From: Alphaproteobacteria bacterium
Lineage (GTDB): Bacteria; Pseudomonadota; Alphaproteobacteria; SHVP01
Assembly (NCBI GenBank): GCA_038148335.1
Contig: JAYQVF010000003.1
Coordinates: 1 to 54,752 of the forward strand
DNA length: 54,752 bases
Reading direction: 5' to 3'
Both the position numbers and the translations under genes were made by a program. A model generated the notes under the pieces. It was given only the letters and a program-made list of their open reading frames with translations, was not told where the DNA came from and did not search any database. Numbering within the stretch: the first letter of the stretch is position 1; every line of letters begins with the position of its first letter. Positions 14,305-17,722 of the stretch are shown in pieces.

Positions 14305-16017
14305 ATGCCGGAACAGGACATCGCGGACCAGATGCGCCTATGGCGTACGCCCGAGGGCGTGCGCCGCGCCTACATGGATTGCCGCTTCGGGCAACTGCAC
14401 TACCGCATCGCCGAGCCCACGCAGGACCAAGGCAAGACGCCGCTGATCTGCTTCCACCTGAGCCCGAATTCGGGCCGGGTCTATGCGCTGTGGCTGGCGG
14501 AGATGGCGAAAGACCGGATCGCCGTCGCGCCGGATACGCCGGGGTTCGGCGAATCGGACCCGCCGCCCCGGGAGCCCGAGATCGCGGACTACGCCGCGGC
14601 GATGGGCGAACTGATCGACCATCTCGGTTACGACCAGGTCGACGTCATGGGCTACCACACCGGCTCGCGCACTTGCGTCGAGATCGCCCAGCAGCGCCCG
14701 GAACAGATTCGCCGCATCGTCCTTGTTTCGGCGCCGATCTATTCGCCCGAGGAACTGGCGGTTCAGTACAAGACGATGGGAACGCCGGCCGCCGACGAGG
14801 CGAAAGACGATGGCAGCCATCTGCAAAGAAAGTGGGACGGACACTTCCGCTGGAAGGACCGCGACGCCCCGCCCGTCTTCGTGCACCGCGAGGTGGCCGA
14901 GGCGCTGCGCGGCGGCGACCTCGCGTGGTGGGGACATCATGCGGCGTTTCGCCTGCAGCACGCCGACAACCTGCCGAAGGTGAAGCAGCCGATCCTGATC
15001 CTGTGTCCCAACGACGACCTGCGGACGCCGACGCTACGGGCCACCGACTACCTGCAGAACGGCCGGCTGCACGAACTGCCCGACTATTCGCACGGGATGC
15101 TGGACGTGCACACGACGGAGGTCGCTGGTGTCGTTCGCGAGTTTCTCGACGGCCATTGCCGCGACATCGGCGCGACCATCGCCAAGGACACGCCGCCGCC
15201 ACCGCCGAAACCCCGCCGCGCGCTCCGGCGCGGCTTTCTCGACGGACCTGACGGGCAGATCCACTATCGCATCGCGGATACGGCCACGGGCGGCAAGACG
15301 CCGCTGATGTGCCTCCACATGAGCCCGAACTCAGGCCGCATTTACGAGGCGATCCTCGAGGAGATGGGCCACGACCGGATCGCCGTGGCGCCCGACACGC
15401 CCGGTTTCGGCGAATCGGACGCGCCGGCGACGCCGCCTGAGATCGCGGACTATGCCCGCGCGATGGCGCATGTCGCCGATTCGCTGGGCCTGAAGCAGAT
15501 CGACGTGATGGGCTATCACACCGGCTCGGAGACCTGCGTCGAGCTGGCGCTGCAGCGCCCCGACCTGGTGCGGCGGATCGTTCAGATCTCGTGCCCGGTG
15601 TTCACCGACGAGGAACTCGCGACGCTGCGGCGCGAGCTCGGCGCGGTTCCCATCGCCGAAGACGGCGCGCACCTGATCAAGAAGTGGCGGCACATGTTGC
15701 CGTTCTACGGCCCGATGGTGCCGCGCAGCGTGCTGGCGCGGAACTTCGCCGAGGGCCTGCGCGGCGGGCCGGTCGCTCATTGGGGCCACCGCGCGGCGTT
15801 CAACTACGATCTGCGCGAAACGCTGCCGCGGGTGACGCAGCCCATTCTCGTGATCAATCCGAACGACGATCTCGTGGCGCAGACGCCGCGCGGCCTGCCG
15901 CTCATGCAGAACGGACGGATGTTCGAGATCAAGGACCGCGGTCATGGCTTCGTCGACACGATGACGAAGCCGTTCGCTGACGTTTTGCGCGGCTTTCTGG
16001 ATGCCGACGAGGCATGA
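14305..16017 (+). CDS. double-module alpha/beta-hydrolase-fold protein with non-canonical elbow (G-Y-H-T-G-S twice)
   Basis: 570 aa. Two modules of about 270 aa, roughly 60 percent identical by eye, joined by DTPPPPPKPRR. Each has H-x-S-P-N-S-G-R, APDTPGFGESD, MGYHTGS, NPNDDL-type and GHG/SHG motifs. Confidence 0.85.
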   Translation: MPEQDIADQMRLWRTPEGVRRAYMDCRFGQLHYRIAEPTQDQGKTPLICFHLSPNSGRVYALWLAEMAKDRIAVAPDTPGFGESDPPPREPEIADYAAAMGELIDHLGYDQVDVMGYHTGSRTCVEIAQQRPEQIRRIVLVSAPIYSPEELAVQYKTMGTPAADEAKDDGSHLQRKWDGHFRWKDRDAPPVFVHREVAEALRGGDLAWWGHHAAFRLQHADNLPKVKQPILILCPNDDLRTPTLRATDYLQNGRLHELPDYSHGMLDVHTTEVAGVVREFLDGHCRDIGATIAKDTPPPPPKPRRALRRGFLDGPDGQIHYRIADTATGGKTPLMCLHMSPNSGRIYEAILEEMGHDRIAVAPDTPGFGESDAPATPPEIADYARAMAHVADSLGLKQIDVMGYHTGSETCVELALQRPDLVRRIVQISCPVFTDEELATLRRELGAVPIAEDGAHLIKKWRHMLPFYGPMVPRSVLARNFAEGLRGGPVAHWGHRAAFNYDLRETLPRVTQPILVINPNDDLVAQTPRGLPLMQNGRMFEIKDRGHGFVDTMTKPFADVLRGFLDADEA

Positions 16018-16024
16018 GGGAACG

Positions 16025-17722
16025 ATGAACGACGACGACATGAAGGTCTGGCGGACCCCCGAAGGCGTGCGCCGCGCTTTCGCGGACGGCCGCTGCGGAC
16101 AGATTCACTACCGGATCGCGCGTCCCAACGCGCCATCGCGCATACCGCTGGTGTGCCTGCACCTGAGCCCTGCGTCGGGCCGCATGTTCGGACCATTCCT
16201 GCAGCAGATGGGCAAGGACCGGGTCGCCGTCGCGCCGGACACGATCGGTTTCGGCGAAAGCACGCCCCCGCCAGAGCCGAAGGAGATCGAGGATTTCGCC
16301 GAATGTCTTGGCGACCTGCTCGACACGCTCGGACTCGGTACCGTCGACCTGCTTGGCATTCACACCGGCTCGGAGATTGCCGTCGAGACCGCACGGCAGC
16401 GGCCGAATCAAATCCGGCGGTTGGTCATCGTGTCCGCGCCGATCTTCACGGAAGACGAGCTGGCAGACTTCCGCGCGCACTATCAGCCGATTCTGCCGCA
16501 GCCCGACGGCAGCCACCTGAAGCAGCATTGGGCAGGACACTGGAAATGGCGCGGCCCCGGCGTCGACGCCAACGTGAACCAACTGGTCGTGGCCGAGGTG
16601 CTGCGCAACGGCGCGTGCTACGCCTGGGGCCACCGCGCGGCATTCAACTATCCGTTCGGCGACCGCCTGGCCGAGGTCGAGCAGCCGATCCTGGTGCTCA
16701 ATCCCGACGACGATCTCGTCGAGCAAACGCGCCGCGCCGCGCCCCTGCTGCGCAACGGCCGAATTCTCGATCTTCCCAAAGAAACATTCGGACACGGGAT
16801 GTTCATGACCCGTCCAGAAGAAGTGGCGACGATCGTCCGCGATTTTCTCGACGACGACGATTCAGAGCCCGACGACGTGGACGATGCCAAGAAGAAGACG
16901 ATCGCATCGCCCGCGAACCTGCCGGGCTTCGTCCGCCGCGCGTTCACCGACAGCCGCTGGGGCCAGTTGCACTACCGGGTCATCCGCCCGGCGGAGGACG
17001 ACCAGAAGCACCGTCCGCTGATCTGTTTTCACGCCAGCCCACGCTCGGGCCGCGCCTACGTCAACCTCATGGAGGCGATCGGCAACGACCGGATCGTCAT
17101 GGCGCCCGACACGCCGGGGTTCGGCGAGAGCGAGCCGCCGCCCGAACCGGTCGAGATCAGCGATTTCGCCGACGTGATGGTCGAGTTCATCATGAAGCAG
17201 GGCTTCGAGTCGGTGGACCTGTTCGGCTTCCACACCGGCAGCGAGGTCGCCACCGAGGTGTGGCACAAGATGCCGAAGACCGTGGCACACATCGTGATGT
17301 ACTCCGCGCCGATCTTCAGCGAGGAAGAGCTCGTCGACTTCCGCGAACGCTACACCCCGGTCGAGTTCGACGAGAACGGCATGCACAACGTCCTACGCTG
17401 GCAGTTCTTCTGGCCATGGCTTGGGCCGGAGCAGCCGATCGAGAACTACGCCCAGGCGTTCTACGAGACCCTGCGGTGGGGACCTGCCTACCCCTGGGGG
17501 CATCGCGCGGCATTCAACTACGCGATGGCCAAGAGGCTGAAACAGGTGAATTGCCCGGTACTAGTGCTGAATCCCGAGGACGACCTTTACGAGCAGTCGA
17601 AGCGGGCCACCGACCTGATTCAGAAGGGCCGGGTCCACGACATGCCGGGGTTCGGCCACGGCATGATGGACACACGGACCGCCGACGTGGCCGCGATCGT
17701 GCGCGCGTTTCTCGCGGACTAG
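16025..17722 (+). CDS. double-module alpha/beta-hydrolase-fold protein with non-canonical elbow (G-I-H-T-G-S, G-F-H-T-G-S)
   Basis: ORF 16001-17722. The ATG at 16025 is preceded by GAGGGA and lies 7 nt after the previous stop. Same module repeated twice, joined by the acidic linker DDDDSEPDDVDDAKKK. Confidence 0.85.
   Translation: MNDDDMKVWRTPEGVRRAFADGRCGQIHYRIARPNAPSRIPLVCLHLSPASGRMFGPFLQQMGKDRVAVAPDTIGFGESTPPPEPKEIEDFAECLGDLLDTLGLGTVDLLGIHTGSEIAVETARQRPNQIRRLVIVSAPIFTEDELADFRAHYQPILPQPDGSHLKQHWAGHWKWRGPGVDANVNQLVVAEVLRNGACYAWGHRAAFNYPFGDRLAEVEQPILVLNPDDDLVEQTRRAAPLLRNGRILDLPKETFGHGMFMTRPEEVATIVRDFLDDDDSEPDDVDDAKKKTIASPANLPGFVRRAFTDSRWGQLHYRVIRPAEDDQKHRPLICFHASPRSGRAYVNLMEAIGNDRIVMAPDTPGFGESEPPPEPVEISDFADVMVEFIMKQGFESVDLFGFHTGSEVATEVWHKMPKTVAHIVMYSAPIFSEEELVDFRERYTPVEFDENGMHNVLRWQFFWPWLGPEQPIENYAQAFYETLRWGPAYPWGHRAAFNYAMAKRLKQVNCPVLVLNPEDDLYEQSKRATDLIQKGRVHDMPGFGHGMMDTRTADVAAIVRAFLAD

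Follow-up and report, generated by a model that had tools for sequence, protein, structure and literature searches.

Histidine predicted at the nucleophile-elbow position of duplicated alpha/beta-hydrolase modules encoded on an alphaproteobacterial contig

A stretch of 54,752 nucleotides from an Alphaproteobacteria bacterium (contig JAYQVF010000003.1 of assembly GCA_038148335.1; this whole stretch is called the window, and positions refer to it unless another locus is named) carries two adjacent genes, designated A and B, each encoding two modules of the alpha/beta-hydrolase fold that carry a histidine where the catalytic nucleophile is expected. Judged from sequence alignments and a structural model, the fold is intact and the His lies exactly at the elbow, and the fold seems to host here an active site of a kind not yet described. 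It is an evenly balanced judgement, made from sequences and predicted structures, that A and B function as members of a large branch of the fold, so far without a name, in which the invariant elbow His-Thr-Gly would be catalytic as general base or acid, without the covalent intermediate of Ser- or Asp-type enzymes.

Genes A and B and the residue at the nucleophile elbow

Gene A (14305-16017, +) encodes 570 amino acids with two His-elbow modules (residues 1-290 and 306-570; supported by the open reading frame (ORF), Pfam and an AlphaFold2 model), and gene B (16025-17722, +) encodes a paralogue of 565 amino acids, also with two His-elbow modules (supported by ORF and Pfam); both ORFs and the 7-nucleotide gap are as described in an earlier note on this DNA, which had been made from the sequence alone. 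The start of B lies 7 nucleotides past the stop codon of A, which is overlapped by a GAGG motif. An alternative in-frame ATG, also open, is present at 16001, and the start at 16025 is supported because orthologues begin 7 nucleotides past the upstream stop; in six loci the orthologous A-B pairs were found to lie 1-7 nucleotides apart or to overlap by 4 nucleotides. The head-to-tail duplication that the earlier note had claimed was recovered as two matches per protein to Pfam Abhydrolase_1 (PF00561; A 91.8 bits and B 75.8 bits, cut-off 25.8), and the four modules (A1 and A2, B1 and B2) share a mutual identity of 42-50%, with an overall identity of 46% between A and B. Both linkers were also located where claimed, the proline-rich DTPPPPPKPRR in A (residues 295-305, 15187-15219) and the acidic DDDDSEPDDVDDAKKK in B (residues 276-291, 16850-16897).

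The elbow reads G-Y-H118-T-G-S in A1 (14650-14667, +; His codon CAC at 14656-14658), G-Y-H405-T-G-S in A2 (15511-15528, +; CAC at 15517-15519), G-I-H113-T-G-S in B1 (16355-16372, +; CAC at 16361-16363) and G-F-H403-T-G-S in B2 (17225-17242, +; CAC at 17231-17233). The earlier note had placed the four His codons and the elbow, loop and cap motifs correctly in every module. The accepted nucleophiles of alpha/beta-hydrolases are Ser, Cys or Asp; none of these occupies the position in A1, A2, B1 or B2, all of which have His, and we know of no characterised member of the fold with His at the nucleophile position. According to one review, the nucleophile elbow always carries Ser (PMC11878206), and a survey covering 40 structural families treated the nucleophile-His-acid triad as a common core (PMC7034887). 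The canonical hydrolase encoded in the same window (1971-2819, -) has the elbow G-T-S-L-G-G, as the earlier note had read it.

Several alignments placed the His on known nucleophiles, as the earlier note had proposed. In phmmer alignments G-Y-H-T-G-S fell on G-W-S-L-G-G in 4g5x, the lactonase AidH, and, with His on Asp, on G-H-D-W-G-G in the epoxide hydrolase 7ac0, while a profile of 54 single modules matched the His to the Ser within G-H-S-T-G-G of chloroperoxidase L (1a88), with the late 'GHG' and 'DD' aligned on its triad His and Asp. With hhalign, H118 fell on Asp129 of a Cif sequence. The AlphaFold2 model of A, built on a 48-sequence alignment, had a predicted local distance difference test score (pLDDT) of 95.6 and a predicted template modelling score (pTM) of 0.93, and DSSP assigned strand 112-117, H118 and helix 119-130 (the beta5-turn-alphaC elbow) in the first module and strand 399-404, H405 and helix 406-417 in the second. 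A Foldseek search with this model returned 1677 matches in the PDB at E<=1e-3, the top matches being Cif, Pseudomonas fluorescens esterase (PFE), enol-lactonase and PhaZ, with a probability of 1.0 and TM scores (normalised on the target) of 0.7-0.8.

It is very improbable that the assignment is an alignment artefact and that Thr119, Ser121 or Ser53 is the real nucleophile. While Ser121 stands three residues past the His in all four window modules and Thr119 is 95% conserved, the phmmer, profile and hhalign alignments and the DSSP assignments of two confident models put the His at the strand-helix apex, and position 121 varies across the family (Ser 99, Ala 70, Thr 16 and Gly 8 of the 208 His-elbow modules defined below). 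A register shift with Ser121 as the nucleophile can be ruled out from the aligned sequences. In the fold, it is the backbone NH of the residue following the nucleophile that faces the oxyanion hole, and its side chain does not.

A word-indexed search identified more than 312 relatives of A and B. The earlier note's proposal called for conservation of the His among homologues, and the two elbow His were present in 112/113 and 113/113 full-length homologues (His405 of A2 in 113/113). A phmmer search with module A1, exhaustive over 1.84 billion representatives clustered at 50% identity, gave 8140 matches at E<=1e-3, of which 1988 reached 1e-10 and 265 reached 1e-30. Within the best 150 of the 8140 matches, the 146 newly listed representatives contributed 168 modules, 141 of which carried G-x-H-T-G-[SAGT]. 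When all collected modules were filtered to 70% identity, G-x-H-T-G was found in 208 of 248 modules; these 208 His-elbow modules and the remaining 40 non-His modules were used for the residue comparisons given below.

Carriers of the family are almost all metagenome-assembled genomes (MAGs), comprising freshwater and marine Alphaproteobacteria, Rhodospirillaceae, Steroidobacteraceae, Nevskiaceae, Acidibacter and Chloroflexota/Dehalococcoidia. The family is widespread among aquatic Alpha- and Gammaproteobacteria and occurs also in Chloroflexota, and one MAG carries at least 5 separate His-elbow loci. Cultured carriers are Novosphingobium sp. PP1Y, PY1, N. resinovorum, N. humi, Nocardioides gilvus, Stakelama portus, Humitalea sp. 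and a Streptomyces. Members are annotated as "alpha/beta hydrolase", "pimeloyl-ACP methyl ester carboxylesterase", "Tropinesterase" or "Haloalkane dehalogenase", and every annotation seen is generic or wrong.

There was no dedicated Pfam or NCBIfam model for the family, all hits being generic or sub-threshold, and a profile search of the PDB returned no family member, its best match (E 4.5e-21) being a Ser enzyme. A named family was rejected as the identity of A and B on these grounds. Literature searches on GxHxG, an elbow His, a His-His-Asp triad and the accessions of the cultured members found nothing relevant, and the check for a named family that the earlier note had proposed ended with no curated model, solved structure or paper.

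Residues kept with the elbow histidine and the proposed chemistry

In A1 the oxyanion-loop motif reads H-L-S-P-N-S-G-R (14455-14478, +), and its equivalents lie at 15316-15339 in A2, 16160-16183 in B1 and 17030-17053 in B2 (all +). The consensus of the four is H-[LMA]-S-P-x-S-G-R, in which the Gly of the canonical H-G-x-P is replaced in every module and Ser53 of A1 occupies the X position. The cap region of A1 (14809-14949, +) comprises D-G-S-H172-L-x3-W177 (14809-14835) and W-G-H211-H-A-A-F (14929-14949), the corresponding motif pairs being at 15661-15687 and 15781-15801 in A2, 16505-16531 and 16625-16645 in B1, and 17375-17401 and 17495-17515 in B2 (all +), with the consensus [DN]-G-x-H-[LN]-x3-W and W-G-H-[RH]-A-A-F.

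The acid and late His motifs of A1 are P-N-D237-D-L (15007-15021, +) and S-H263-G-M (15088-15099, +), with equivalents at 15859-15873 and 15940-15951 in A2, 16703-16717 and 16790-16801 in B1, and 17573-17587 and 17654-17665 in B2 (all +). An acid P-x-D-D-L after beta7 and a late [SG]-H-G after beta8 are therefore present in all four modules, and this His and Asp align on the triad His and Asp of chloroperoxidase L and Est1. The earlier note had given the acid motif as N-P-x-D-D-L, a form that does not hold for A1, which reads C-P-N-D-D-L. Its further statement that acid and base are kept holds for the A/B modules and fails for the family as a whole, in which the late His is present in 101/208 and the Asp in 165/208 His-elbow modules.

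Comparison of His-elbow with non-His modules indicated which residues accompany the elbow His. Thr119 was present in 95% (197/208) of His-elbow modules against 35% of non-His modules, Ser/Thr53 in 89% (186/208) against 38% (15/40), His/Tyr211 in 77% (160/208) against 38%, and Asp237 in 79% against 48%. The late His (H263) was found in 49% of His-elbow modules and was not one of the four commonest residues of the non-His modules (each <=4/40). Gly120 was present in 207/208 and loop His51 in 203/208 His-elbow modules. Position 211 was His in 51% of the His-elbow modules, and tended to be His where the late His was present and Tyr where it was absent. The elbow His-Thr, loop Ser/Thr53 and His/Tyr211 are kept together and lost together; from the residues co-kept in His-elbow as compared with non-His modules, the functional site looks like a set of His118, Thr119, Ser/Thr53 and His/Tyr211, with His263 and Asp237 optional. 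Cap His172 (69% of His-elbow, 80% of non-His modules) and cap Trp177 (91% and 93%) persist even in degenerate modules, and the D-G-x-H-L-x3-W cap element seems to be structural or to form an interface.

In the proposed mechanism the elbow His would serve as general base or acid, with help from the loop Ser/Thr, the cap His/Tyr and the oxyanion hole. No covalent intermediate of the Ser or Asp type would form, and half of the family is without a relay that activates a nucleophile. The late His-Asp pair retained in the A/B modules may tune the elbow His.

A covalent role for the elbow His is unlikely. Here the His itself would be the nucleophile, activated by the late His-Asp pair and forming a transient acyl-imidazole or phospho-histidine, and the enzymes would be hydrolases or transferases acting on activated esters, thioesters, lactones or phosphoryl groups. 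Such a role would suit the placing of the His exactly where a nucleophile sits, at the N-terminal end of helix alphaC, the preserved oxyanion-hole positions and the His-His-Asp line-up kept in all four A/B modules, and acyl-imidazoles are hydrolytically labile, so turnover is chemically feasible. However, the late His is missing in about half of the His-elbow modules and in all N-modules of the C/D type (described below), and the acid in about 20%, so an activating relay is not a family requirement; nor is there an invariant Arg cluster of the kind typical of phosphoryl-transfer His enzymes.

It is improbable that the elbow His instead binds Zn, Fe or Mn jointly with the late His, cap His/Tyr or Asp, and that the proteins are metalloenzymes. 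Although A and B have many conserved His near the canonical site (H51, H118, H172, H211 and H263) as well as Asp237, across the family there is no invariant ligand beyond His118 and His51, the latter being present also in canonical relatives, with H172 at 69%, H211 at 51%, H263 at 49% and D237 at 79%.

Paired modules, the second gene pair and the genomic neighbourhood

A second double-module pair, absent from the earlier note, is located at 22163-25554. Gene C (22163-23890, +) encodes 575 amino acids of a second double-module type, with an N-module elbow G-S-H111-T-G-A (22487-22504) and a C-module elbow G-H-Q401-G-G-A (23357-23374), and gene D (23887-25554, +), which overlaps C by 4 nucleotides, encodes a paralogue of 555 amino acids with a His elbow at 24172-24189 and a Gln elbow at 25027-25044. 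In C and D the G-H-Q-G-G-A C-modules no longer carry a loop His or a late His, and the late His is missing from all C/D-type N-modules. The AlphaFold2 model of C (pLDDT 94.8, pTM 0.93) has a strand-H111-helix and a strand-Q401-helix arrangement. Among 121 relatives of C, the N-module residues His111, Thr112, Gly113, Tyr218 and Asp245 were invariant, and the C-module elbow was Asn in 68, His in 21, Gln in 19 and Gly in 8. One module of the C/D type thus keeps its site while the other decays, a pattern that, as read from the sequences, is the signature of a catalytic subunit and a pseudo-subunit. C-modules with an Asn, Gln or Gly elbow gave confident models and are under purifying selection. As far as the models indicate, the His is not needed for folding, and its invariance elsewhere would therefore reflect function.

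All four genes A-D are under purifying selection, the ratio of non-synonymous to synonymous substitution rates (dN/dS) being 0.09-0.22 over A, B, C and D (0.09-0.15 for A) compared with 0.07-0.13 for the adjoining short-chain dehydrogenase/reductase (SDR) gene. The elbow His itself is strongly selected. The earlier note had argued for selection rather than decay, and its argument was upheld by dN/dS values of 0.09-0.18.

These data bear on a non-catalytic reading, in which the modules would be ligand-binding, sensor or scaffold pseudoenzymes that use what was once the active-site pocket to bind a small molecule or a partner, for example the methyltransferase described below. This is quite unlikely: the invariant His-Thr-Gly comes with coherent pocket residues that are kept and lost together, at least 5 separate loci occur in one MAG, inside gene islands of catabolic type, and the combination of a conserved with a degenerate module in C and D is typical of an enzyme with a pseudo-subunit. 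The reading draws on the absence of the canonical nucleophile and the erosion of the triad across the family, on the clearly degenerate C-modules of C and D, on the recurrence of a methyltransferase and a small protein beside family members, and on the existence of non-catalytic members of the fold such as Ndr, which gave a weak sub-threshold Pfam hit here.

Across the fetched loci, one double-module gene was found in 52 cases, two adjacent double-module genes in 11, two adjacent single-module genes (mostly with a 4-nucleotide overlap) in 15 and lone single modules in 14, and the longest runs of module genes reached 2+2+2+1. A split form of the fused proteins, as genes of about 270 amino acids overlapping by 4 nucleotides, is present in many Rhodospirillaceae MAGs (ten loci, at about 10000-11700 in each). 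Modules nearly always occur in twos, fused or in translationally coupled genes. From these pairing architectures, and from the pTM of 0.93 in both models, we infer that two modules together make up the working unit, as a dimer, and that A and B represent heterodimers in fused form.

The block around A and B is conserved in relatives from 90% down to about 52% identity, in the order nitrilase-superfamily protein, 222-amino-acid protein, SDR, A, B, luciferase-like monooxygenase, methyltransferase, 113-amino-acid protein, ABM monooxygenase, C, D and Ala-elbow hydrolase. The nitrilase-superfamily protein (10845-12587, +; 580 amino acids) matches CN_hydrolase over residues 17-271 only, no match being found for its C-terminal ~300 residues; its place upstream of the SDR and A is conserved, the identity of relatives reaching as low as 52%. 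The 222-amino-acid protein (12584-13252, -), hydrophobic by eye and without a Pfam or NCBIfam match, has relatives (60-89% identity) in 13 fetched loci, always 656-1557 nucleotides from the nearest His-elbow gene. The SDR oxidoreductase gene (13370-14200, +) is a conserved neighbour separated from A by a 104-nucleotide gap. Downstream are the genes for the luciferase-like monooxygenase (19069-20166), a class I S-adenosylmethionine-dependent methyltransferase (20252-21445, +; 397 amino acids, assigned by Pfam, with an unannotated N-terminal extension of ~190 amino acids), a small protein of 113 amino acids without a family match that is always beside the methyltransferase (21442-21783, +) and the ABM monooxygenase (21780-22079). 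Past D lies the gene for a single-module alpha/beta hydrolase (25551-26420, -) with an Ala elbow (V-G-A-A-T-G-G) and a late C-D-H motif, relatives of which (51-75% identity) were seen beside the same block in seven loci.

The gene for an HtpX-type M48 protease (17981-19018, +) separates B from the luciferase-like monooxygenase and was apparently inserted into the block; it is in the same place in several close relatives, and locus L001 has two small ORFs instead. The region 1971-7188 (-) comprises the canonical Ser hydrolase, genes for a tripartite ATP-independent periplasmic (TRAP) transporter (DctM/Q/P) and an FAD_binding_3 monooxygenase of aromatic-hydroxylase type, and the same gene set is found upstream of the block in the MarineAlpha2 locus L007. 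An ORF of 319 amino acids (8267-9226, -) has coding-like composition and relatives in 8 loci, and gave no Pfam or NCBIfam match. A promoter and terminator scan of 12500-26500 gave results at or below shuffled expectation.

Two more long-methyltransferase paralogues (29606-30727, -, and 30755-31951, -), ~40% identical to relatives of the first, bring the copies in the window to three. Searched against the PDB, the C-terminal domain of the methyltransferase matched generic class I enzymes only and the N-terminal extension had no match. A class I methyltransferase of 358-397 amino acids with an unannotated N-terminal extension and a small protein of 81-118 amino acids recur beside His-elbow genes in distant lineages, namely in Humitalea sp. 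(L085, 11662-12973), Novosphingobium sp. PP1Y (L086, 4161-5583) and N. resinovorum pSA1 (L089, 11200-12757), the methyltransferases being 30-37% and the small proteins 23-30% identical. In Novosphingobium sp. PP1Y the order is major facilitator superfamily (MFS) transporter, small protein, methyltransferase, G-T-H-T-G-A hydrolase, M24 peptidase, G-Y-H-T-G-S hydrolase and MFS transporter; the pSA1 megaplasmid of N. resinovorum has the same components, in a region that is unannotated in the PLSDB record and whose ORFs were called in this analysis. In Humitalea a C-type His-elbow gene overlaps a class II aldolase gene by 4 nucleotides. Class II aldolase/adducin genes directly upstream of a double-module gene were observed in Steroidobacteraceae (L005/L006, 9225-11752, 5-nucleotide gap) and at the Humitalea locus (9249-11665, 4-nucleotide overlap).

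The 343 neighbours of family members fell into 171 families, the commonest Pfam families among 147 representatives being SBP_bac_5 (6), SDR (6), methyltransferase (4), luciferase-like monooxygenase (3) and FAD_binding_2 (3). A single conserved operon partner that would reveal the substrate was rejected, as there was no universal partner among the 343 neighbours; recurring partners were limited to the methyltransferase and small-protein pair and to the local block (nitrilase-like protein, 222-amino-acid protein and SDR). It is possible, though doubtful, that the reaction is of a type unrecorded for the fold, with a site centred on the elbow His that could do without the classical triad and an obligate two-module unit tied to a dedicated methyltransferase and small protein, or alternatively with an elbow His that is modified or carries a covalent intermediate; methylated or methyl-esterified metabolites could be the substrates of such a methyltransferase-tied unit.

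If the elbow His of A and B does act as a general base or acid, the substrate would probably be an organic acid that is small and oxygenated, for instance an ester, lactone or epoxide. Among characterised enzymes, the closest relatives act on esters and lactones or open epoxides. An anionic substrate is suggested by the conserved Arg 58, 202 and 212 and by the adjacent TRAP transporter. The source of the substrate would be the surrounding catabolic island of TRAP transporter, flavin monooxygenases, SDR, nitrilase-like amidase and methyltransferase, in which the monooxygenases and SDR would make lactone, epoxide or keto-acid intermediates. Four points weigh against the general base/acid proposal. 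Homologous positions are the basis for the contacts proposed among His118, Ser53, His211 and His263; given the great diversity of the neighbours (171 families among 343), the guess at a substrate is weak; a conserved pocket His is equally expected of a ligand-binding protein or a metal site; and the Cif profile alignment put the cap His172 and His211 off the epoxide-polarising His177 and Tyr239 of Cif.

Should the proposal be true, the family would be a new mechanistic class for the alpha/beta-hydrolase fold, with an invariant His at the nucleophile position and a dispensable canonical His, and it would extend over hundreds of sequence clusters (265 representatives at 50% identity, E<=1e-30). 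The systematic mis-annotation of members as "pimeloyl-ACP methyl ester carboxylesterase", "tropinesterase" and "haloalkane dehalogenase" would be corrected, and the family would hint at metabolism not yet known among the abundant Alpha- and Gammaproteobacteria of fresh and marine waters and among Chloroflexota. The family can be tested directly through its cultured carriers in Novosphingobium, Humitalea, Nocardioides and Stakelama.

Comparison with known systems

The best profile and structural matches to A and B were to the haloperoxidase/aryl-esterase/enol-lactonase group (1a88, 3hea, 2xua and 4g5x), with which they share strand order, the elbow context G-x-Nu-T-G-G/S, and the alignment of the acid after beta7 and the His after beta8. 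The nucleophile of that group is Ser, whereas A and B have His, and the late His is dispensable in the His-elbow family. Scores against the PcaD enol-lactonase model (TIGR02427) were 97.6 bits for A and 81.7 bits for B, compared with a cut-off of 255.85.

With the epoxide hydrolases and dehalogenases, including Cif (3kd2), A and B have in common the N-terminal motifs H-x-x-P-x-S (loop) and A-P-D-x-x-G-x-G-x-S, and Cif, the top Foldseek hit, also has a helical cap with conserved His/Tyr. The earlier note had assigned the modules to the epoxide-hydrolase/haloacetate-dehalogenase branch; the motifs do match, but the assignment was too narrow, as Ser enzymes (haloperoxidase, esterase and enol-lactonase) match as well. 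In A and B the Asp nucleophile is replaced by His, which makes an alkyl-enzyme ester intermediate impossible, and the Gly of H-G-x-P is replaced. Dehalogenase NCBIfam models gave 85.3/70.9/53.6 bits for A and 56.5/70.9/49.0 bits for B against cut-offs of 466/241/265. The hhalign alignment to the Cif sequence put S142 on E153 at beta6 and placed cap His172 and His/Tyr211 4 and ~8 residues off Cif His177 and Tyr239, which gave no support for a Cif-type epoxide-polarising pair, cap alignments being unreliable.

Among members of the fold without catalytic activity, ABHD5/CGI-58 has Asn at the elbow and is catalytically inactive, and Ndr/NDRG is likewise inactive. The canonical nucleophile is replaced in these proteins too, and the Asn, Gln or Gly elbows of the C/D-type C-modules are like that of ABHD5; the His-elbow modules differ in having invariant, co-varying pocket residues. 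The Ndr Pfam model (PF03096) scored 20.9 bits against a cut-off of 23.3, over residues 377-430 only. By nucleophile and by curated threshold, A and B are placed by their sequences outside the epoxide hydrolase, dehalogenase, PcaD and haloperoxidase/esterase families.

Acid-base chemistry without an acyl-enzyme is carried out within the fold by HbHNL, MKS1 and the cofactor-free dioxygenases HOD and QDO. In HbHNL and MKS1 an oxyanion-loop Thr acts with His, Ser (Ala in MKS1) is at the elbow and the late His is the base. Precedent for such chemistry in the alpha/beta fold is reported in one published account (PMC10548524). The loop Thr of HbHNL and MKS1 is analogous to Ser/Thr53 of A in position, and there were no HNL or MKS1 relatives among the listed Pfam, NCBIfam and PDB matches of A and B, nor a specific sequence relationship. 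The base is the late His in HNL and MKS1, whereas in the His-elbow family the His is at the elbow and the late His is optional. By analogy, it is these acid-base members of the fold (HNL, MKS1 and the cofactor-free dioxygenases) that the His-elbow proteins would most resemble in function.

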